64,000 nucleotides of DNA, taken from the NCBI GenBank assembly GCA_046330175.1, contig JAXLTG010000001.1, forward strand, positions 723,599-787,598, in the 5' to 3' direction. The position numbers and the translations under genes were made by a program. This DNA comes from Fimbriimonadales bacterium. GTDB taxonomy: Bacteria; Armatimonadota; Fimbriimonadia; Fimbriimonadales; ATM1. A model generated the notes under the pieces. It searched no databases and was not told the DNA's origin. It worked only from the letters and a program-made list of their open reading frames with translations. Positions 37,653 through 58,301 of this stretch are shown here, piece after piece (the first letter of the stretch is position 1; each line of letters starts with the position of its first letter).

Positions 37653-37988
37653 TTACCAGTCTCGCGAACCGCCGCGACCGCCGCCACCGCGACCGCCGCC
37701 ACCACCACCGCCGCGGTAACCACCGCCACCGCCTCCGCCGCCACCTGGGCGTTTCGGACGGTCTTCGCGTGGTCGCGCTTCGTTGACGATGATCTTTCGT
37801 CCGCCGACATCGGCACCGCTTTTGTCGTTAATCGCAGCTTCAACGTTGGCGTCTTCGACATCAACAAACCCGAAACCGCGGCCTTCCACGATTCGTGCAG
37901 CCGATGCGCCGTACGCAGAGAACAGGTCGAGGAGATTTTCCTCGGTATATGAGTAGGGAAGGTTTCCCACATAGAGTGACTTTGCCAT
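37653..37988 (-). CDS. RRM-type RNA-binding protein with a Gly/Arg-rich (RGG) C-terminal tail.
   Basis: RNP2 LYVGNLPY and RNP1 RGFGFVDV motifs. Tail GGGGGGGGYRGGGGGGGRGGGGRGG. Confidence 0.85.
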   Translation of the reverse strand: MAKSLYVGNLPYSYTEENLLDLFSAYGASAARIVEGRGFGFVDVEDANVEAAINDKSGADVGGRKIIVNEARPREDRPKRPGGGGGGGGGYRGGGGGGGRGGGGRGGSRDW

Positions 37989-44221: not shown

Positions 44222-44374
44222 ATTGGCTACGTCCTTCAAATATTCTTGAAATCTAGTAAATCTCGTTAGTTTGGCTGACGAAATTTCTGATACAAAATGT
44301 ATTAGTTTTTGAGGATACCAGGCTGCCGCCGAGAAGCGGTCTCCGAACGTAACCTAAAAATTGCGGAGACAAAT

Positions 44375-44944
44375 ATGCAAAATGGCATGGCACAACGCGT
44401 GTTAATCGCGGATGACGAGAGTTCTGCTCGAGATCTCTGGCGCGCTCAACTGGCCGAACTCGGGCTGGAAGTTTGCGCTGAGGCGTCTACGGGTGATGAC
44501 GCCGTGAAACTCGCCGAAGAAACCCAACCCGATATCGCCCTGGTTGACATCAATATGCCTGGTCGCACAGGCCTCGAGGTCGCCAAGGAGATTTCTGAAC
44601 GGGCCAATTGCCCCGTCGTGCTCCTCACGGGAGCCACAAACCCAGACCTCATTTCGGCTGCCGCAGAGTCCGGCGTGTACGGCTATTTAACCAAGCCGGT
44701 CCGCCTCGGGGACCTCGGTCCGATGATCACGCTGACTATGGCCCGGTTTCGTGAATTCGATTCTGTTCGAAGACGACTCGAAACGAGGACAGTTCTGCAA
44801 CGGGCAAAGGGAATCCTGATGGATAACTTTGGGTTGACTGAAGATGAGGCTCACAAGAAGATTCACTTCGCGGCGAGGAGCAACAACCTTCCGATTTTGA
44901 AGGTTGCCACCGACGTTATCGAAACCAAAAACCTGCCGGTCTGA
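44375..44944 (+). CDS. Response regulator with an ANTAR RNA-binding output domain (AmiR/NasT-like).
   Basis: Receiver domain with phospho-acceptor Asp in [15 protein letters not shown] motif [32 protein letters not shown]. Confidence 0.85.
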
Positions 44945-46917: not shown

Positions 46918-46999
46918 TCCCACTCGTAGGTCATTCCCTCGGTGTCGGCTACCAGTGTCTCCGCGGCCGTGAGCACCCCGGTACAATCTGTCGGCCATT

Positions 47000-47584
47000 G
47001 TGAAGCAGGAATCGCAAGAACTAACCCGACTCCTCGAGCGCGCCAGAAATGGCGATCAGAGGTCCTGGGAGCAGCTCGTGAAGCGGTTCCAAAGCCTCGT
47101 CTGGTCCATCCCGATGCGCAAGGGTCTCAGCCGAGAGGACTGTGCCGACACCTTCCAGAACACGTTTTTGCAGTTTCACCGGAATTTGGATCGCATCGAG
47201 AGCGCGCTCGCCGTACCGAAGTGGCTGGCGGTGACCGCTTCACGCGAGGCTCTCCGGATTCTGAGAACCAATCCAAAGCGGGCATCCCTGGACGATCCGG
47301 AAGAGCAGGGCCTGGACGAACTCGTGGCGCTGGAGGATAGATCAGCAGAGGTGTCGGCGATAGAGTCGGTGAGGGCCGATCTGCTCAGGGAATCCGTTCG
47401 TGCCGTTGGTGGCAAGTGCTCGAAATTGCTCTGGGTGCTGTTTTTCGAGGATTTCGAGAGTTACGAGGAGGTCGGTACCAAACTCGGGATGCCGGTTGGG
47501 GCCATTGGACCGACTCGCTCAAGGTGCTTGGCGAAGCTGAGGGAGCTGCTTAAAAGGGAGGATTTCTTCGATGAGGACTGTTAA
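47000..47584 (+). CDS. ECF-type RNA polymerase sigma-70 factor.
   Basis: Region 2 (SWEQLVKRFQSLVWSIPMRKGLSREDCADTFQNTFLQFHRN) and region 4 HTH (SYEEVGTKLGMPVGAIGPTRSRCLAKLRELL). Confidence 0.85.
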   Translation: MKQESQELTRLLERARNGDQRSWEQLVKRFQSLVWSIPMRKGLSREDCADTFQNTFLQFHRNLDRIESALAVPKWLAVTASREALRILRTNPKRASLDDPEEQGLDELVALEDRSAEVSAIESVRADLLRESVRAVGGKCSKLLWVLFFEDFESYEEVGTKLGMPVGAIGPTRSRCLAKLRELLKREDFFDEDC

Positions 47585-47623: not shown

Positions 47624-48163
47624 ATGAACTCGGAATGCAAACTGATCCAAGATCGGCTTGTCGCCGTCGCGTTTGGGGAAAACGACGCCGAGGCGGAAGC
47701 CCATGCCAACCTATGCACCGGGTGCGCACAGTTCCTTGCGGAGTTGCGGTCCATCCAGACCGTGTCTGCGATAACGGTTCAGAATGCGCCATCCGACGTG
47801 CTTGCTGCAGCCATCGGGATTGTGGGGGACAGTAGCCCAGGGCTGGTTCGGCTCATCGCGTCGAACTTGGCCACAGCCGGCGTTCGAGCCGCTGCCGCTG
47901 TGCACGCAGTCCAATTGGTGTTCGAAACACCGATAGGAATCGTGCGAGTGCAGTACACCAAAGAGGGAAAGGCTTGGGTTGCGAGCTGTGAGCTGCCGGA
48001 AGGTGTAGAGCTTATTCGCCGAGGCACGGCTGTAGCTGTGAACAACGGAATTGCGGAATTCGGGTTCGCCAGACCACAAGATTCATCATTTGTCGTTCGG
48101 CGCGGAAACATTGAGGCTAAAATCCCCTCATTCAATGAGGCGGCAAGTCTCGACACCGACTGA
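47624..48163 (+). CDS. Putative anti-sigma factor (zf-HC2 type), 179 aa.
   Basis: HANLCTGC zinc-finger motif (H-x3-C-x2-C) about 30 aa from the N-terminus. Lies 39 nt after the sigma gene. A hydrophobic stretch is present mid-protein. Confidence 0.6.
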   Translation: MNSECKLIQDRLVAVAFGENDAEAEAHANLCTGCAQFLAELRSIQTVSAITVQNAPSDVLAAAIGIVGDSSPGLVRLIASNLATAGVRAAAAVHAVQLVFETPIGIVRVQYTKEGKAWVASCELPEGVELIRRGTAVAVNNGIAEFGFARPQDSSFVVRRGNIEAKIPSFNEAASLDTD

Positions 48164-50771
48164 AGAGTTACAGTTACTGCTTAGCGCCACAAGTCCCGCT
48201 TCAAGGCAACGGACGGTTGACACGTCTGCCGACCCGGCGGGATTGGCGGCGGCGCTCTTCGATCATGTGACGACTCTCGCGGCGTCAGATCCGCGAAGCT
48301 CTGAGCACGCTTCTCGGCTTTACAAGCATTTCAATCGGAACTCAGCGGCGGTGGTTTATGCGGCAAGAGCACGTGCCACCGGCTTGCGATCACAAGGAAA
48401 GTGGATCGCGGCAGCCGAGCTGCTCAACGAACGGGCAGATGTTGTTTCAGATACCGCCGACAAATGGATCTTAAGGACGGGTGTGGTTGATTCTCTTGCT
48501 CGAGCAGGGATGACACTCGAAGCGATCGCCCTCGGCGAACGCGGCTACCAGGAGCTGCAAAGCATTGGCCGAAACGATTTAGCGCGACGCATCGCTCTGA
48601 ACCTTGGAAACGCTTATCTTTGGTCTGATCGTTATGCGGATGCCATCCGCTGTTATGCGCTTGCTCACGAAGATTCGGGTCCCAAAGACGAAGCATTGAG
48701 GGCGTACGCGTATTTAGGGCAGTCCTCAGCGAATCTGTATGGAGGTGACGTTAAGGAGGCCCAGACGCTTGCTTTGCTTGCGCGTGATCTGTTCACGAAG
48801 ATGGGAGCAGATTACTACGCGATTATCTGCGGAGAGAATCTTGCACGGGCACAGATGCTGCTCGGTAACCCGGAGCAAGCTGTTCGCACACTCCGTGACA
48901 TGAATCGTCTGATAGATCGAGAAGATGCAGAGACGGGTCGAGTGAACGAATTCCTCGGCGATGCTCTGTTCAGTCTCAACCTGTTCACTGAATCCGCCGC
49001 GTCATATCGGAAGGCTCTTTCGATGCCGCAGAGTCAAACAACTCCGCTGCAGCGAGGCAATTGCGCACTCGGTCTTGGAAAATGTTATTCAGAATTAGGT
49101 GAATACCGTCTTTCGCTAATCTGGCTCAACAAGGCGGAGAGGATGTTCGCAAAGGCTGCGAATGAGCCGTGGAGGGCGGCTGCGTTTGCGGACATCGCTA
49201 AGACGCTGCGAAGGTCTGGTCGGCCCGCAAAGGCAATCGAGAAAATTGATATCGCGATACAGAAGTTGAAAGAGACCGATTCTTACGCCAGTCTGGCAGT
49301 GGCGTTGATTGAGAGGCATCTGATCATGATGGCGACAGGCGATTCTGACTTGCGGTCTCTCGTGGAGGCAATTGAGATCATCGAGCGATTCGGGGTTCAC
49401 AGCCTTCGGTGGGAGACGGAGTGGCGAGTTGCGCAGCAGTGCCCGCACAAAGAGGAGCAGCTTCAATCGCTGCTTGGAATTTGTGGAAATCTGATAGCGG
49501 GTGCTCGTGCAATAGAAACGCTTCCCGCGAGAATTGCCTACTTTCACGATAAGACTGAACTGTTCCGCGAGACGATTGATCTCCTCTTGGACAGCGGCAG
49601 AAACGACCACGTTCAATCAGCCGTGAACCTGATCGGTGCCATTCGCGGTTCTACGCTTATCGTGCAGCGTAATGAAGAAGTAGACGATCGGTTCTTGGAA
49701 GTAAGTGAGCTTCGTCAGGAGATCAGTGTGTTGACCGGCGCATACAAGCGCGGGCTTCCGACCCCCCGAGCGAAGTGGGAAACGGCTCAGAAGCGGCTGC
49801 GGGAGCTGCTTGAGTCTGAACCTTTGATTCCTGGAACGGTCGCCTCGCCGTCGCCAAAGTGCGTCATTTATCATGTTCGCGAAGCTCGTGTAGCGGCGTT
49901 ATTCGGCTCGGTAACGAGCGAACTGAGCTTATCGGAAAGTTCGATTCGCTCAGAAGCCCGAGCTAGTGCAATGAGAATCGGCTCGTTTGAAACGGGAAGG
50001 CCGGTAGCTGCTGACGTAATTGAGAGCCACGCGATCGCACTGGCGAGTGAATTGGGACTGAGCGGAACTGAGGCGCGTGGTTTGATTTCGCCGGACGCGG
50101 ATATGTGGCGACTTCCCTGGGGGTTGATTGGCGGCGCCGCAGGTTTTGAACCGCTGCTTGCAATCAGTCCTGCGGTGCCCGATGCAGTACTTCGTTCAAA
50201 ACTGCCTGCGAATCCTTCGGCGATGGTGTTCGCGTACGATGGCAAAGATCTGCCTTTAGCAAAACTAGAACTTCGGCAGTTCCTTAACAGGTTTCCGAGT
50301 TCGGTCGTAATACGCAATGCAGCCCAACTCGAATCCGCGATGAAGCGATCCCGCGCAGATATTCTTCACATCATTGGACACGGGCAGTTCAACCGCGAGA
50401 ACCCGATGTTTTCAACCGTTGAGACGGCTGGCACTTCCGTGACAGCGGCAGAGATTGCCACAAGTGGGATTCGAGCACGGTTTGTTTCTCTGTCGGCGTG
50501 CCAACTTGGCGGTCTAGGAGGCAGCAGAGTTGAGCCGGAGGGAATGGTGAGGGCGTTTCTGTCGGCCCGGTCTGAGTTCGTCCTCGCGAGCGCGTGGAAC
50601 GTGGGGGATAAACAGGCGGCCCAATTTTCTGCGAGGTTTTTCGGGAGCCTAGCCGGGAATCGGCCCGATGAGGCTCTCAAGGATGCAAGAATGTATCTCA
50701 GAACGAAGGAGCCGCATCCTTACCACTGGGCCCCGTACCAACTTTACGTAGGCCCGAAACATTGGTCATGA
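48135..50771 (+). CDS. TPR-CHAT protein. An N-terminal TPR-like helical repeat region of about 600 aa precedes a C-terminal CHAT (caspase-like) protease domain.
   Basis: CHAT signature ADILHIIGHGQF (catalytic His) ... FVSLSACQLGG (catalytic Cys) ... LASAWNVGDKQAAQFSARFF. TPR-like repeats are present (e.g. LNLGNAYLWSDRYADAIRCYALA). Overlaps the anti-sigma stop. No NTPase motif. Confidence 0.8.
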   Translation: MRRQVSTPTEELQLLLSATSPASRQRTVDTSADPAGLAAALFDHVTTLAASDPRSSEHASRLYKHFNRNSAAVVYAARARATGLRSQGKWIAAAELLNERADVVSDTADKWILRTGVVDSLARAGMTLEAIALGERGYQELQSIGRNDLARRIALNLGNAYLWSDRYADAIRCYALAHEDSGPKDEALRAYAYLGQSSANLYGGDVKEAQTLALLARDLFTKMGADYYAIICGENLARAQMLLGNPEQAVRTLRDMNRLIDREDAETGRVNEFLGDALFSLNLFTESAASYRKALSMPQSQTTPLQRGNCALGLGKCYSELGEYRLSLIWLNKAERMFAKAANEPWRAAAFADIAKTLRRSGRPAKAIEKIDIAIQKLKETDSYASLAVALIERHLIMMATGDSDLRSLVEAIEIIERFGVHSLRWETEWRVAQQCPHKEEQLQSLLGICGNLIAGARAIETLPARIAYFHDKTELFRETIDLLLDSGRNDHVQSAVNLIGAIRGSTLIVQRNEEVDDRFLEVSELRQEISVLTGAYKRGLPTPRAKWETAQKRLRELLESEPLIPGTVASPSPKCVIYHVREARVAALFGSVTSELSLSESSIRSEARASAMRIGSFETGRPVAADVIESHAIALASELGLSGTEARGLISPDADMWRLPWGLIGGAAGFEPLLAISPAVPDAVLRSKLPANPSAMVFAYDGKDLPLAKLELRQFLNRFPSSVVIRNAAQLESAMKRSRADILHIIGHGQFNRENPMFSTVETAGTSVTAAEIATSGIRARFVSLSACQLGGLGGSRVEPEGMVRAFLSARSEFVLASAWNVGDKQAAQFSARFFGSLAGNRPDEALKDARMYLRTKEPHPYHWAPYQLYVGPKHWS

Positions 50772-51967
50772 GAATTTTTGCGAAGATTATTTGGACAGCT
50801 TGCCTGGTTAGCGTTATGGGAAGCGCTTCGGCGACGGGCTGGCTGATTTGTCAATTGGCGCCAGGCACAAATGAGAATGCGGTCGCGAGCGATTACGGTA
50901 TTGAGGTTAGAGACCACACGAAGCCTTCTCCGTTCTACTTGTTCTGGATTCCTGATTCTCGGCTGCCCGAGGACCTGCAAATTCAGATGCAGTTTGACAT
51001 TCGGGTTTTGTGGGCAGAAGACAATGTGGACGTCGAGATGCCCGAGCATGTCGGTGGAGGCAAGGGTGCATCAGTAGGTGTCGTCAACGACCCATTTGCG
51101 TTCTTCAACTTGAACGATCATGCCTTAGATCAAGTTTTCTATGCGCCTCCGACGTTTTTTGGAACGCCAACTCCGGTCAGAGTTGGTGTGATTGACACCG
51201 GACTTTCGGGGCTTGAACGTCGAACTTGGACGAAGCGAGTCGTTGCGAGCGCGAATTTTGTCGAGGCGTTGCGCCCAGCCTTCGACCGACCGATGAACAC
51301 AGACTCAAGCGGCAACGGTATTCCTGACGAAGCGGTCGGACACGGCACGATGGTGGCGAGCATGATTGCGGAAATGACAGTGAATTTTCCGCTCGTCATC
51401 GTCCGGGCAGCGGACAGCGATGGGAAGTCAAGTTCTTGGCTGCTTACGAAAGCGCTCGCGTTCGCCGCGCGCAACGGATGCCGCGTGATTAATCTCTCTC
51501 TTGGTTCGGTGGGCAGGATAGCTGCGATGAGCCACGTACTAGATTGGACACAAGGGCAGAATATTGCTGTCATCGCTGCAGCCGGAAACAATGGAATTCA
51601 GACCGACTTCTATCCGGCAAGCTACAGCAACGCGATCAGTGTTTGCGCAGTGGATCCGGGCGACATCAAGGCACCGTTCTCGAACTACGAAGGGACAGTT
51701 GATTCCGCTGCCCCCGGCACGGGAATTTTGGCCAAGTTTTGGAAGCTCGATTATGCGATTGGTTCGGGGACTTCGTTTTCCACGCCGTTCGTTTCGGCCG
51801 GCGTGGCGATTGCGTACGCCTTCAACCCTTCCGTGACAGTGAGCGAGTTGAGAGTCGCTGTCGAAGTCACTGGCGACAATATTGATGGGCTTAACCCCTT
51901 GTACCAGGGAAAGATCGGGACGAGGCTGAACATTATCCGTCTGGTTGAATACTTGCGCGGCAATTAG
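50762..51967 (+). CDS. Subtilisin-like serine protease (peptidase S8). Secreted.
   Basis: Catalytic triad contexts VIDTGL (Asp), GHGTMVASMIAE (His), GTSFSTPFVSAGVA (Ser). Signal peptide. Start overlaps the CHAT gene stop by 10 nt. Confidence 0.85.
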   Translation: MVMRIFAKIIWTACLVSVMGSASATGWLICQLAPGTNENAVASDYGIEVRDHTKPSPFYLFWIPDSRLPEDLQIQMQFDIRVLWAEDNVDVEMPEHVGGGKGASVGVVNDPFAFFNLNDHALDQVFYAPPTFFGTPTPVRVGVIDTGLSGLERRTWTKRVVASANFVEALRPAFDRPMNTDSSGNGIPDEAVGHGTMVASMIAEMTVNFPLVIVRAADSDGKSSSWLLTKALAFAARNGCRVINLSLGSVGRIAAMSHVLDWTQGQNIAVIAAAGNNGIQTDFYPASYSNAISVCAVDPGDIKAPFSNYEGTVDSAAPGTGILAKFWKLDYAIGSGTSFSTPFVSAGVAIAYAFNPSVTVSELRVAVEVTGDNIDGLNPLYQGKIGTRLNIIRLVEYLRGN

Positions 51968-54228: not shown

Positions 54229-56568
54229 CTATTCTCTTCGAATCGGTATCTCGACGCGACTCGGATTTCCGAGAACCGGAATAACCCACACAGGCTCGAG
54301 GTTGACCGCGAGCTCAGGGTCCTCTAACGAGTCCGGATTGATTGAAAGCTCGACAGGAACCGAAGGAGCGAAACCAGTCAGCAGCGCGATGCCGTCCTCA
54401 TCGGTTATGCCGACGAGATCGCGTCGGGCGACGCGAAAACTTGCGCCCGCAATAGGCGTGTCTCCATCGTCAAACCTTCCATTGCGATTCACATCAACAA
54501 ATGCGCGAACCGAAACGAGACCCGATGCTGCCGAGCCTTCCGGCAACAAGCGAACAGCGCCGGAACGTGGATCTGCGCCAATACTCGTTGAGTATGTGAG
54601 CGACCCGAAAAACCGCCCATCTTGGTTCACTTGCAGATCAAGTCCAAAATTGCCGGTGGAAAACGCGCGCACCAAACTCACGAATGCGACCAGGTCGTCT
54701 TCTCCGTAGAATAGCTTGCGAATCCCTGTGTTCAGGCGAAAAGTTTTCGAGCTCCCGAAGTCTGCGCTGACGGATGCGCTTCTAAGAAACTGATTGCCGA
54801 GCGCGTAACCGAGTTCGCCTCGGAGCCACTGCGACCCGATCTTTTTCCGAACGGCGAACCGGCCCCATTCTGTTCCGTCAATTGTTGACTCGCTCCTCAT
54901 ATAAAGGCTGTTCGAAACGCTGATGCCTCCGAACGTTCCTGCGATCCGGCTGGAGAGCTGAAACTGTGGTCCTCGGTTTGTGAACTCTCGATATCTGAGT
55001 GTGATTGAGCCAAACAGCGGTATGTAAGAGGAGAATCGAAGAGGCGTGTCAACCCGCAAGTTTGCATCCAACCGAATAGGAGTTGAAACCGAGGAGATCG
55101 TTTCACTGATGTAGCCACCAGCAAAAACCCCCACGCTTGCCGCGACATTCTTGTCGCCAACGCGGGTTTGAAGTGAAGCCACCGAGCCCAGTGCGCCGTC
55201 TGAGTTGGCAATGACGTCAAACGAGCCGAGCGCAGATCCGATTTTTAGCCTTACGCCGAGGGAAAAGTAGTCTCTTGGCTCTGCGAGAACGGCTCTGCCG
55301 GAGATTGAGGTTTGCGAGTTGATTGTGTGTTCGACCTCTGCGAGCAGCCTCCAGTCAGGATTCACACCATTGCCACGAAGATACTCCTGCATCGCCGAAA
55401 TTCGGTAGTTGGTCTCGCCGGGCCTCGTGTATCCATAGCCAACAAACTGCTTTCGCTCATCTGTTTTGGTTTCGCCGTTAGGTCCGATTGAGACGATTTT
55501 AAACCGGTTTTCACCAACCACTAACGCGACGTTTGTAAATTTGTAGCCACCGAATTCATCCGTCGTACCCGTATCTATCAGTAGTCCGTCACGGTATAGC
55601 TCAGTTCGCCAACCAGGAAGGCTCGTGCCGACAATCGTTGTCTCGTTGAGATCGGCAGAACGCGAGACAGGAAAGCTTGAAACCTCGAAACCTCTGCCAC
55701 GCTTTGGAAGCGCAACATGGGAGATGCTGGCAGACCAAACGTCACCAAGCGCAAAAGTTCGCGCCCGCAATGGTCCTAAGAGGTTCCCCTCTTCGCTTGT
55801 CCGCGAAAGCTGGAATCTGACCGATTCGAGCGGGCGGGTCCAGTCACCGATAGCGGAAAGTCTCGCGTTCATGCTCAGAAGGTCCGCAGTGGCGAACAGA
55901 TTGAATCTTTGCGAAATATCTCCTGATCCATCTTGGCGCGTGGAGGTAAGTGAGAAGTCGAGCGTCGGAACGGAAAACATTGCGGGAATCGGGGCTTTCA
56001 ATCCTGGCGGTGGCGTTCGCTTCGGCTTTGCATATGCGGGGACGCGAGGCACCGCGCGATTTGCGCGAATAGCTTCCTCGATTGGCAATTCGAACTCCGG
56101 ATTGAGCCGAAGCTCGAGTTTTGGGAATGAGAACTCGAAGTCCGATTTCAACCAAGCCGCGATGATGCTGACGTCAAGATGAATCTCCCCGTCAAGCATC
56201 AGCACGCTGCCTATAGGCATCTGCTGCGTAACTCTTGCAATCGTTAGTGTGGCGGTTCCGGACGAGTACGCGAGACCGCGATCTCGCTTCGGCAGGTCAG
56301 CCCGAAATTCGCCATTCAGCTCCGACGAAGCGATGCCGAGTGAACTACAGAAGACGTGAATGGGAAAGAACAGCCGCGAATTTCCGTCAACGGCGGCAGG
56401 AATCGCCTCGGAAACCAGACGATTTCGTAACCGTATCGCGACAAGAATGCGTTCGTAGTCACCCGCCGGGCGGCTAACCTCATCGTCCGACTTTGGTTGC
56501 GCCCAAGCGACGCACATGCACCCGATCAGAGCGATGTGTGAGAGTCCCCTAGTGAGCGCCATGACCAA
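54229..56568 (-). CDS. Outer-membrane usher of an archaic chaperone-usher pilus system.
   Basis: 779-aa beta-rich secreted protein immediately downstream of a PapD-like chaperone and an SCPU pilin, in the canonical gene order. Assignment rests mainly on context and size. Confidence 0.55.
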   Translation of the reverse strand: MVMALTRGLSHIALIGCMCVAWAQPKSDDEVSRPAGDYERILVAIRLRNRLVSEAIPAAVDGNSRLFFPIHVFCSSLGIASSELNGEFRADLPKRDRGLAYSSGTATLTIARVTQQMPIGSVLMLDGEIHLDVSIIAAWLKSDFEFSFPKLELRLNPEFELPIEEAIRANRAVPRVPAYAKPKRTPPPGLKAPIPAMFSVPTLDFSLTSTRQDGSGDISQRFNLFATADLLSMNARLSAIGDWTRPLESVRFQLSRTSEEGNLLGPLRARTFALGDVWSASISHVALPKRGRGFEVSSFPVSRSADLNETTIVGTSLPGWRTELYRDGLLIDTGTTDEFGGYKFTNVALVVGENRFKIVSIGPNGETKTDERKQFVGYGYTRPGETNYRISAMQEYLRGNGVNPDWRLLAEVEHTINSQTSISGRAVLAEPRDYFSLGVRLKIGSALGSFDVIANSDGALGSVASLQTRVGDKNVAASVGVFAGGYISETISSVSTPIRLDANLRVDTPLRFSSYIPLFGSITLRYREFTNRGPQFQLSSRIAGTFGGISVSNSLYMRSESTIDGTEWGRFAVRKKIGSQWLRGELGYALGNQFLRSASVSADFGSSKTFRLNTGIRKLFYGEDDLVAFVSLVRAFSTGNFGLDLQVNQDGRFFGSLTYSTSIGADPRSGAVRLLPEGSAASGLVSVRAFVDVNRNGRFDDGDTPIAGASFRVARRDLVGITDEDGIALLTGFAPSVPVELSINPDSLEDPELAVNLEPVWVIPVLGNPSRVEIPIRRE

Positions 56569-56572
56569 GCCG

Positions 56573-57403
56573 CTACTCCTTCCGTCGAACCAGCAGGCCC
56601 GCCTTGGCGGGGTTCTTTACGCGAGTCTCGGAGAACTCAACTCGCAAATTCGTTGCCTTGGCGATTGGCTTTAGTGGGACCACAACTTTTCGGACACTGT
56701 TCGGATAGTAAACCGTTAGGTCGCGAACGAGGCCAACTTGCTCCCTTCGTTTTTCGTTTGACTCGACATACACAGCGAGGTCACCGCGAATGGAGCGCTC
56801 GCCTGTTCGGCATAACTCCACATGAAGCTGGTTGCCGATGACCGAGCCATTTGCCAAGGTTGCTGACGCTGTCGGATTGCCGGCGCGGAACAGCACGGGG
56901 ATAGAAATTGCCGGCACAACCCTAAACCGGATTGAAATGCGTGAGGGATCAGGGTCAGTTGATTCGACTCCCGATGGCACGACTGCCACCTGCAGGTGTG
57001 TGCGGTATTCGCCCGCCTGCAATTTATTGGGGCCAACGGCGACTCGAATCTTCTGTGCGCCGTGAGCGCCAACTGTCACTTGTTGAGGAGCAAACTTCAG
57101 GAGCGGCTTCAGCGATCGCTCCGACGTTGTTCCAACCGGCAGTCTGGCAAGCTTTCCACTCTCATCCATCTGCATTTCGATGAGAGTAACTTTGTAGGAG
57201 ACCGGTTTATCCGAAGGATTAACAAGCAAGACTTCGCCGGATCGAGATGAATCGTCCAGCATAATCCTGCGCGATGACAGAAGAATGGTTTGTTGCGGTC
57301 CGTTCCTGGGTGAGGCGAACAGAATCGCTGCCGCGCCTATCGCGAAGAGCATCGCGCAGCGCAACATCGGCAAGAATCGGAAAGTCACTGGGGGAAATGA
57401 CAT
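56573..57403 (-). CDS. Periplasmic pilus chaperone (PapD/CsuC-like).
   Basis: Signal peptide, then GEVLLVNPSDKPVSYKVTLIEM and later beta-strand pattern typical of the Ig-like chaperone N-domain. Five nt from the usher start. Confidence 0.55.
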   Translation of the reverse strand: MSFPPVTFRFLPMLRCAMLFAIGAAAILFASPRNGPQQTILLSSRRIMLDDSSRSGEVLLVNPSDKPVSYKVTLIEMQMDESGKLARLPVGTTSERSLKPLLKFAPQQVTVGAHGAQKIRVAVGPNKLQAGEYRTHLQVAVVPSGVESTDPDPSRISIRFRVVPAISIPVLFRAGNPTASATLANGSVIGNQLHVELCRTGERSIRGDLAVYVESNEKRREQVGLVRDLTVYYPNSVRKVVVPLKPIAKATNLRVEFSETRVKNPAKAGLLVRRKE

Positions 57404-57427
57404 TCGACATCCTCCGTAGAGGTGAAA

Positions 57428-57946
57428 TTAGTCGTAGTCCGCAGTCACCGTCACGACGGAGGTATGCAAACCGAGCGTCGCGTTTGCAGCGACTCGAATA
57501 ATTCCACCAAGGTTCAGATCGAGATCTCCGGATCCGTCCAGTGTTCCAGTGCCGCTTGCGCTCGTCCCATTGATATGAGATGCGAGAACGGTGACACCGG
57601 TGCCGTCGAAGGCTCCGATCGAAACGCTGAACGAAACGTTAGCGTTCGCGTCGCCTGCGAGCGCCCACAAACCTGCGGCGCCGTTGTCCCACGAATATCC
57701 AGGAAACGTTGTGCTTGTCGAAGCGGTTAGCGTCACCGCTCCCGTCGCATAGTTCAGAGTGTAGTCTGCAGTGCCGTCACCAGGAGCCGCTACCGTGCCC
57801 CAGCTCATCGGTGTAGTTTCCGCGAGCGTCAGAGCGGCGGCGATCGTTACTGTTCCGCTGCCGTCATCGCTCAACTGAGCCGATGCCGAGCCCCAAATCC
57901 CCATGGCGAAAATTGCCGCGAGCGTAAGTTTGATAATGTTGTTCAT
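57428..57946 (-). CDS. Spore-coat-protein-U (SCPU) domain pilin subunit (Csu-type).
   Basis: Signal peptide MNNIIKLTLAAIFAMGIWGSASA. Gly/Thr/Ser/Ala-rich beta protein of about 170 aa. Ends ...VTVTADYD, characteristic of the SCPU family. Confidence 0.65.
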   Translation of the reverse strand: MNNIIKLTLAAIFAMGIWGSASAQLSDDGSGTVTIAAALTLAETTPMSWGTVAAPGDGTADYTLNYATGAVTLTASTSTTFPGYSWDNGAAGLWALAGDANANVSFSVSIGAFDGTGVTVLASHINGTSASGTGTLDGSGDLDLNLGGIIRVAANATLGLHTSVVTVTADYD

Positions 57947-58301
57947 GTTTTCACCCAACTTTTGTCGAGCATTCATGCTAAGCGTCGCGGCCCATGCTGC
58001 TCAATCGGAATTATCGGTCCCGCACCCAGTCATCCTTACACTTCCGGCGCTCGCACCCGTTTGTTCCGGGTAACAGCCTCATAATCCTCCAGGCAAGTAT
58101 CCTGTACAAACTCGTTCATTGAGCTCAAACTCGAGCTTGAGCCGCACCGGGAGTCAAAACCTGAGGATTTGTGTTAGGTTTTCGATCTCTCTGACTAGCC
58201 GATTCTCTGGAGGCGGGGACCGTATTCGAGAGACACGAATTGGCAGTGCAAGGGCGCCAGGTTGCCAGCTTAATGCGAACTAACAAATAGGAGAGCTAGA
58301 A

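Follow-up and report, generated by a model that had tools for sequence, protein, structure and literature searches.

In a 64,000-nucleotide stretch of the genome of a Fimbriimonadales bacterium (Armatimonadota; assembly GCA_046330175.1, contig JAXLTG010000001.1, forward-strand positions 723,599 to 787,598; hereafter the window), we found that a gene encoding a TPR-CHAT protein, in which a caspase-fold CHAT protease domain follows a long array of TPR-like helical repeats, is translationally coupled at both ends within a four-gene cassette, the other members of which encode a sigma factor of the extracytoplasmic function (ECF) type, a small anti-sigma-like protein and an S8 subtilisin-like serine protease (Table 1). 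The cassette is conserved in two phyla (in the Armatimonadota and on the Betaproteobacteria side), and sequence comparisons indicate that the CHAT gene is a real protease gene with a catalytically intact dyad. By analogy with characterised systems, we propose that the TPR-CHAT protein may be the protease arm of a four-gene ECF sigma switch that frees the sigma factor by cutting its anti-sigma, a reading to which we would give about an even chance.

The open reading frame (ORF), the Pfam assignment and the predicted fold all agree that this 878-residue product is a TPR-CHAT protein, as a sequence-only reading of the window had proposed. Pfam CHAT (PF12770) matched residues 651-871 with E = 1.6e-22 and a score of 80.7 bits (cut-off, 24), and several TPR families (TPR_12, TPR_1, TPR_2 and TPR_8) matched residues 150-370, well above what chance would give. 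In an AlphaFold2 model built from a 15-sequence alignment (predicted local distance difference test score (pLDDT) 85.3; predicted template modelling score (pTM) 0.86), the N-terminal part consisted entirely of helical hairpins and the C-terminal part formed an alpha/beta domain. The top Foldseek matches of this model in the PDB (E = 2.5e-11 to 1e-8) were Csx29 (8eey_B, E = 2.5e-11), the Craspase TPR-CHAT (8d9f), separase (human and yeast) and DdvA (8rw5 and 8rot), so that the structure prediction called for in the earlier reading led to TPR-CHAT proteases, and the modelled fold overall appears TPR-CHAT/separase-like. Neither Walker pattern ([GA]x4GK[ST] for Walker A, hhhhD[DE] for Walker B) occurs in the protein, which also had no NTPase match in Pfam or PADLOC; a STAND or Avs-type identity, already dismissed in the sequence-only reading, is rejected for want of a P-loop or Walker motif.

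The active site was compared by aligning a profile of the CHAT domain alone with solved TPR-CHAT structures. His749 aligned with His585 of Craspase, and Cys789 with Cys627 of Craspase and Cys907 of DdvA, the catalytic dyad residue numbers of both systems having been published (Craspase, PMC9729208; DdvA, PMC11506125). This alignment, which had been named beforehand as the check that could refute the assignment, indicates that the dyad occupies the caspase-fold catalytic positions. Of the two motifs to which catalysis had been ascribed, HIIGHG (residues 745-750) and LSAC (residues 786-789), both are present, with one correction: the catalytic histidine is the second of HIIGHG (His749, with Gly next to it), while the first, His745, is likewise invariant in the family. 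All three residues (His745, His749 and Cys789) were invariant in 15 full-length homologues and at 86 of 86 homologous loci. This invariance bears on whether TPR-CHAT might instead be a non-catalytic scaffold or co-anti-sigma, acting by partner switching without proteolysis, as could be imagined from the protein-binding nature of TPR arrays and from the DdvA dyad mutants, which had no phenotype in the conditions tested (PMC11506125). That the three residues and their surrounding motifs are kept in every homologue across phyla, despite an overall identity of only 25-30%, argues strongly for retained catalysis, and we consider a scaffold highly improbable.

The same reading had called the protein standalone and without a partner, and here it did not hold up: the CHAT gene is not standalone, because it overlaps both the small-protein gene and the S8 gene (the latter overlooked in that reading) within a conserved cassette. 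All four genes are on the forward strand; the small-protein gene and the CHAT start share 29 nt, and the CHAT stop codon and the S8 start codon overlap as ATGA. Relatives were found by an alignment-seeded scan with one genome per species (a genome scan seeded with the CHAT protein alone found none), which recovered full-length relatives from some 30 genomes of Fimbriimonadia and, at the level of CHAT, relatives from some 45 genomes of Burkholderiales. Sigma, small protein, TPR-CHAT and S8 followed one another in this order in about 30 Fimbriimonadia genomes and in about 40 of Burkholderiales, while the flanking genes were unrelated. Homologues with 26-31% identity share the same gene order, with a small ORF of about 170-183 aa and gene overlaps of 4-26 nt. 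Loci were scored with hidden Markov models (HMMs) built from six seed loci, and only testable loci were counted. Among the Fimbriimonadia, the sigma gene was present at 27 of 29 loci, the small ORF at 29 of 29 and the S8 gene at 34 of 34; among the Burkholderiales, a sigma gene on the same strand was present at 33 of 39, the small ORF at 34 of 39 and the S8 gene at 41 of 42; and CHAT and S8 were co-conserved in 75 of the 76 testable loci. Two loci reached from sigma homologues carried the same cassette again. In agreement with the earlier statement that there is no Cas partner, there was no CRISPR-like array within the 64-kb window, there were no cas neighbours, and none of six homologous loci contained cas genes.

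Several homologous loci departed from the common arrangement or call for separate mention. In the Bryobacteraceae (Acidobacteriota; L007/L008, 5434-8865), a related sigma gene lies directly 5' of a gene for a 954-aa TPR-CHAT protein, with neither small ORF nor S8 gene, and control in this minimal pair may follow another logic. Some Fimbriimonadia metagenome-assembled genomes (MAGs) carried two paralogous cassettes on separate contigs (for example, L009 and L027 in JTS-AC126; L014 and L033 in Co_metawrap_422), a hint that the sensor-protease has been duplicated and has diversified. A typical Fimbriimonadia-type cassette also stood on a 228-kb contig labelled 'Methanoregulaceae archaeon' (L011; JADZEW010000021.1), probably a bacterial contig mis-binned into an archaeal MAG. 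At L090 (8534-11302), the TPR-CHAT gene was broken into several short called genes between intact sigma and S8 genes, reflecting either a pseudogenised cassette or frameshift errors of long-read assembly. At about nine Fimbriimonadia loci (Table 1), a gene lay just upstream of the sigma gene in divergent orientation, its product being a small secreted protein of 119-128 aa that has a signal peptide but belongs to no Pfam family. It was rejected as a core fifth component, given its presence at only about nine loci and its absence from the window (where a transketolase gene lies instead), but may play an accessory part in the cassette.

The small protein encoded between sigma and TPR-CHAT is very probably a ZAS-type (zinc anti-sigma) protein, an assignment that is well supported but not proven. 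An exhaustive HMMER search gathered a family of 96 representatives, nearly all 172-185 aa long and aligned end to end (a word-indexed search with the small protein returned only one near-identical copy). In an alignment of 67 sequences, His27, Cys31, Cys34 and Arg88 were invariant and Cys5 was 97% conserved, yielding a zinc signature, C5...H27-x3-C31-x2-C34, of the class I ZAS anti-sigma pattern. The sole solved-structure match of the family profile was the ZAS anti-sigma RsiW, over the zinc motif and weak (E = 0.027), whereas structure searches matched the beta-sandwich only; Pfam gave no family above threshold (zf-HC2 appeared below threshold in one of six members). The AlphaFold2 model (pLDDT 91.3) comprised N-terminal helices within residues 3-67 (3-16, 22-30, 32-48 and 57-67), a linker of lower confidence (residues 68-94, pLDDT 71-82) and a beta-sandwich (residues 95-167). 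The anti-sigma assignment rests on the invariant zinc signature, the RsiW match and a four-helix N-terminus encoded directly downstream of an ECF sigma gene; the presumed role of the small protein is to bind the sigma factor of the cassette and hold it in check.

Besides the zinc site, the most conserved part of the small protein was a linker motif, ARL-x-SSL-x-x-AGAR, which ends at the invariant Arg88. The Burkholderiales small ORFs, although without zinc ligands, keep the core of this motif ([DS]S[WL]..A.G.RS) together with the beta-sandwich, and HMM E-values reach as low as 1e-8. Some members thus lose the zinc ligands yet retain the linker motif and the beta-sandwich, so that the module does not require zinc or redox sensing. 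The same pattern, of a linker kept across phyla even where the zinc ligands are lost, makes the linker around Arg88 a candidate protease recognition or cleavage site.

The sigma factor itself (TIGR02937 sigma70-ECF, E = 8.9e-17; Pfam Sigma70_r2) was 30-52% identical to the cassette sigma factors of Fimbriimonadia, Burkholderiales and Bryobacteraceae, with which it shares a sigma-4 signature (G[SA]IGPTRxRCLxKLR). The cassette sigma factors of Armatimonadota and Burkholderiales form one family, for which a threshold of E ≤ 1e-10 gives at least 1,581 clusters; among the best 120 of these homologues, no actinobacterial names occurred. In the ECF literature, this gene neighbourhood is already catalogued. 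Group ECF54 (Huang et al. 2015, J Bacteriol) has neighbours with carboxypeptidase, subtilase and CHAT domains, and proteolytic control was proposed for it because those neighbours are conserved (summarised in PMC8999054). The ECF reclassification describes ECF54 as actinobacterial and with no putative anti-sigma (Casas-Pastor et al. 2021, NAR), a negative annotation rather than a strict definition, and its main text mentions neither CHAT nor subtilase. The ECF54 context maps one-to-one on the cassette, the 'carboxypeptidase' corresponding to the beta-sandwich small ORF. ECF54, however, was defined in Actinobacteria, whereas the cassette here is from Fimbriimonadales (Armatimonadota), and it was described without an anti-sigma, whereas the cassette's small protein carries an invariant zinc anti-sigma signature. 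The cassette probably matches the actinobacterial ECF54 context, a likeness seen in the gene neighbourhood. No experimental work on this gene context was found in the searchable literature.

These ECF54 descriptions lend some weight to an alternative in which CHAT processes or degrades the sigma factor directly, with the small protein as its adaptor or as an accessory of carboxypeptidase-regulatory-like type. What the review says of ECF54 (PMC8999054) and the finding by Casas-Pastor et al. of no ECF54 anti-sigma speak for it, as do the PCaspase of a type III-B cascade, which cuts the sigma factor PCc-sigma itself, and the Bryobacteraceae relative, which consists of sigma and TPR-CHAT only. So do the Burkholderiales small ORFs, which are without zinc ligands and in six of eight cases gave sub-threshold matches to CarboxypepD_reg (a family with no Pfam match in the window's own small protein). 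In the window's lineage, however, the small protein has a complete and invariant ZAS signature, a four-helix N-terminus and an anti-sigma as its sole PDB match, and the sigma factor is a minimal ECF of 194 aa with no extension that would need processing. We consider direct action on sigma unlikely.

From the gene order, coupling, conservation, fold, dyad, zinc-motif and linker conservation and predicted topology we infer a mechanism in which the capture of sigma by the small protein, the cut and where it falls, the triggering signal and the regulon are all hypothetical. In this proposal, the four N-terminal helices of the small protein would serve as the anti-sigma domain that silences the sigma factor. 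The cytoplasmic TPR-CHAT protein would bind the sigma/anti-sigma complex, a cytoplasmic cue or both through its TPR region, a platform of about 550 residues that is a candidate sensor and/or substrate-docking surface and for which a sensor role is plausible. Once triggered, by such a cue or by docking of the substrate on the TPR platform, His749 and Cys789 would cut the anti-sigma, with the linker at and near the invariant Arg88 as the likeliest site, and the freed sigma factor would redirect RNA polymerase. The translationally coupled S8 protease, which has a signal peptide, would be the exported member and most simply the output.

The precedents for such a switch come from other TPR-CHAT and CHAT systems. 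In Craspase, the TPR-CHAT protease Csx29 cleaves Csx30, an inhibitor of the ECF-like CASP-sigma (PMC10028731). There, as here, a TPR-CHAT gene stands beside those for an ECF-like sigma factor and its protein inhibitor (a candidate inhibitor in our cassette); Csx29 was the best structural match (8eey_B), and the dyad aligned residue for residue. The sequence identity is nevertheless only about 12%, and the cassette contains no Cas7-11, crRNA or CRISPR array, so that the RNA-guided activator is missing; on the absence of Cas7-11 and of an array, a Craspase or type III-E identity was rejected. Csx30 has 565 aa, against 179 aa for the cassette's ZAS-type inhibitor candidate, and in place of Csx31 the cassette appears to have a secreted S8 protease, as judged from its gene content. 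DdvA of Myxococcus xanthus, which acts with the sigma factor DdvS, is a fusion of 991 aa that joins a ZAS domain, a single transmembrane (TM) helix and a periplasmic TPR-CHAT, and was proposed to be a self-cleaving site-1 protease (PMC11506125). The two systems share a zinc anti-sigma, a TPR-CHAT with the canonical dyad, a cognate ECF sigma factor and an operon that ends in a peptidase gene. They differ in that in the cassette two distinct soluble proteins, both of predicted cytoplasmic location, make up the anti-sigma and the TPR-CHAT, its additional peptidase is of the S8 type (C25 in the DdvA operon) and a CBASS or CRISPR regulon is not evident; a DdvA-type identity was rejected, the two genes being unfused and without a TM segment. 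Functionally, and by analogy, the cassette could be seen as a CRISPR-independent counterpart of Craspase and as a split, cytoplasmic counterpart of DdvA.

Separase offers a more distant parallel. In the separase-securin pair, the bound protein is both inhibitor and pseudo-substrate, and separase cleaves after Arg. Its helical-repeat platform and CHAT-type caspase domain resemble those of the TPR-CHAT protein, and cleavage at Arg would parallel Arg88; separase is, however, eukaryotic, much larger and active in chromosome segregation, and the likeness is one of fold only (about 11-13% identity). Dedicated proteases are coupled to sigma control in further systems: CalpL cleaves CalpT, releasing CalpS, and a SAVED-CHAT/PCaspase cascade cleaves PCc-sigma. 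The sequence-only reading had cast the adjacent sigma and anti-sigma as candidate regulators of CHAT; by analogy with Craspase (PMC10028731) and DdvA (PMC11506125), the direction is probably the reverse, with the pair as target.

The fourth gene would extend the module beyond the cytoplasm. Its product matched Pfam Peptidase_S8 (E = 1.9e-29) and begins with a signal-peptide-like N-terminus (MRIFAKIIWTACLVSVMGSASA), after which the sequence resembles, by eye, a subtilisin propeptide. Asp143, His192, the oxyanion residue Asn274 and Ser336 are intact, and wherever family members cover these positions the corresponding D, H, N and S do not vary. A hydrophobic N-terminus was present in 77 of 81 S8 homologues, whereas the sigma factor, small protein and TPR-CHAT from six loci had no signal sequence or TM-length hydrophobic segment. 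In the window itself, no signal peptide or TM-like segment was found in the CHAT protein and no TM-length hydrophobic segment in the small protein; mean hydropathy in 19-residue windows of the anti-sigma and CHAT homologues was at most 1.7 (1.50 and 1.34 for the window's own proteins). On this pattern, the sigma factor, small protein and CHAT are predicted to be cytoplasmic and the S8 protease exported, and the S8 protease may most simply be read as a co-expressed output of the module.

The compartment split also informs two further alternatives. The first is a two-protease cascade, in which TPR-CHAT activates the S8 zymogen or the reverse and the sigma pair provides transcriptional control. 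The ATGA coupling of CHAT and S8 and their co-conservation in 75 of 76 testable loci would fit this, and there are precedents in the type III-B system, where SAVED-CHAT activates PCaspase in a demonstrated cascade from CHAT to a second protease, and in the DdvS/DdvA operon, which likewise ends in a peptidase (of C25 type). However, because the export signal of S8 (77 of 81 homologues) and its absence from CHAT, small protein and sigma factor should put CHAT and S8 in different compartments, a direct cascade between them is unlikely, and the propeptide-like N-terminal region of S8 would suggest autoprocessing; we regard a cascade as quite improbable. The second would turn the split into a closed feedback sensor: the secreted S8 protease would make peptides from environmental, competitor or self proteins, the peptides would be imported and bound by the TPR region (as in RRNPP-type receptors), CHAT would cut at Arg88 and the sigma regulon would be switched on. 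We consider this a long shot; if true, it would be a caspase-like, ligand-gated transcriptional switch without a nucleic-acid or nucleotide sensor, and type III-E CRISPR could have recruited its Csx29/Csx30/sigma arm from such a free-living ancestor.

A further alternative concerns defence. Borvo (BovA) is a single-gene CHAT defence system, the existence of which weakens the premise, taken up in the sequence-only reading, that CHAT proteases need a sensor partner; like TPR-CHAT, it has no Cas or NTPase partner. The TPR-CHAT protein could similarly be a self-contained immune or abortive-infection protease, with the TPR region sensing an invader, CHAT degrading cell proteins and the sigma pair controlling expression only. 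PADLOC returned a weak BovA match (E = 5.8e-5) and a 'subtilase' match for S8, and the paralogous cassettes of some MAGs could indicate diversifying sensors. The BovA match, however, spanned no more than the core of CHAT (positions 540-670 in a profile of 711), and a Borvo identity was rejected because of this core-only match and because the gene is embedded in an operon, with a fixed four-gene order in a housekeeping context rather than a single gene. The scanned flanks (about 35.6 to 61 kb of the window) held housekeeping or unassigned genes (transketolase, threonyl-tRNA synthetase, thiolase, dTDP-glucose dehydratase and other dTDP-sugar genes, and an ANTAR response regulator), with no defence-island or mobile-element signs around the cassette, and the fixed, coupled order of the four genes in two phyla points to sigma, anti-sigma and S8 as functional partners. 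We judge an immune protease improbable.

Upstream of the operon, a candidate -10 box, TACAAT, precedes the sigma start codon, its call as a promoter being based on position alone. TANAAT-like boxes, often with an upstream TG, preceded the sigma start by 8-15 nt at most of the 28 Fimbriimonadia loci (with equivalents at L001, L003, L012, L018, L028, L032 and others), and some loci of Burkholderiales had similar boxes (GCTATGCTT, CTACCAT). Such an arrangement points away from ECF autoregulation and towards a promoter of housekeeping type, from which the operon mRNA would start almost without a leader.

Several points weigh against the switch that we favour. The contact between CHAT and the small protein is hypothetical, and Arg as the P1 site is a guess by analogy, because CHAT specificities vary between systems. 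The ECF54 literature reports that an anti-sigma is absent. The zinc ligands are absent in the Burkholderiales counterparts examined (for example, L039, 2099-2731) and also in one Fimbriimonadia member (L001, 5489-6004). When promoter motifs of the two-block ECF type were enumerated upstream of sigma genes (28 of Fimbriimonadia, 34 of Burkholderiales), nothing stood out convincingly above shuffled controls, and because no such motif was found upstream of the operon, dependence of S8 on the sigma factor is conjectural. Finally, the proposal gives no account of why one member of the module should be exported when the others are cytoplasmic.

Table 1. Features of the cassette in the window, and of an associated gene at homologous loci.
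Feature	Position	Strand	Basis or remark
Candidate -10 box TACAAT	46982..46987	+	read from sequence; 13 nt before sigma start codon
ECF-type sigma-70 family sigma factor, 194 aa, GTG start	47000..47584	+	TIGR02937, Pfam Sigma70_r2
Soluble anti-sigma-like protein, 179 aa	47624..48163	+	zinc signature, AlphaFold2 model, family conservation
Conserved linker motif ARL-x-SSL-x-x-AGAR, aa 75-88 of small protein	47846..47887	+	alignment
TPR-CHAT protease, 878 aa	48135..50771	+	ORF (ATG to stop), Pfam, AlphaFold2, Foldseek
TPR-like helical repeat region, aa 8-561 of CHAT protein	48156..49817	+	AlphaFold2 (all helical hairpins), TPR hits
CHAT caspase-fold domain, aa 577-872	49863..50750	+	AlphaFold2 (alpha/beta domain), dyad alignment
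His749 codon	50379-50381	+	putative catalytic dyad of CHAT domain
Cys789 codon	50499-50501	+	putative catalytic dyad of CHAT domain
Peptidase_S8 subtilisin-like serine protease, 399 aa	50768..51967	+	Pfam, signal-peptide-like N-terminus
S8 triad codon, D143	51194-51196	+	S8 gene
S8 triad codon, H192	51341-51343	+	S8 gene
S8 triad codon, S336	51773-51775	+	S8 gene
Divergent small secreted gene at homologous loci	L001 4388-4774, L003 4367-4750, L002 4471-4830	-	also at L011, L012, L018, L020, L024, L038

Elsewhere in the window, the response regulator with an ANTAR RNA-binding output domain (44309-44944, forward strand) lies immediately 5' of the transketolase gene and had no relation to the cassette at other loci. 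Three successive reverse-strand genes at 54229-57976, encoding two proteins without a Pfam family (779 and 276 aa) and then a 182-aa protein with a sub-threshold DUF4402 match, look like uncharacterised surface or fibre assembly genes. A 15-nt tandem repeat (CCGCCACCGCCGCCA, about five copies; 37672-37745) within overlapping ORFs probably encodes a low-complexity Gly/Ala/Pro-rich stretch.

To the catalogued ECF54-like neighbourhood, these results add the extension of the cassette to Armatimonadota and Betaproteobacteria, the identification of the small ORF in the window's lineage as, very probably, a ZAS-type anti-sigma, a conserved linker whose invariant Arg is a candidate cleavage site, a residue-level alignment that supports the dyad against solved TPR-CHAT structures, and a predicted split of the two proteases between cytoplasm and exterior. 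Two TPR-CHAT sigma/anti-sigma switches have been studied experimentally, the type III-E Craspase, triggered by target RNA, and DdvA, the trigger of which is unknown; the cassette described here is a widespread form that needs neither CRISPR nor a membrane. Its culturable carriers (Ideonella, Rubrivivax and Pseudaquabacterium) make the mechanism directly testable. If the proposed switch is true, it would reveal what a bacterial caspase-like protease senses without an attached Cas or nucleotide sensor, and would constitute a compact, orthogonal protease-to-transcription switch.

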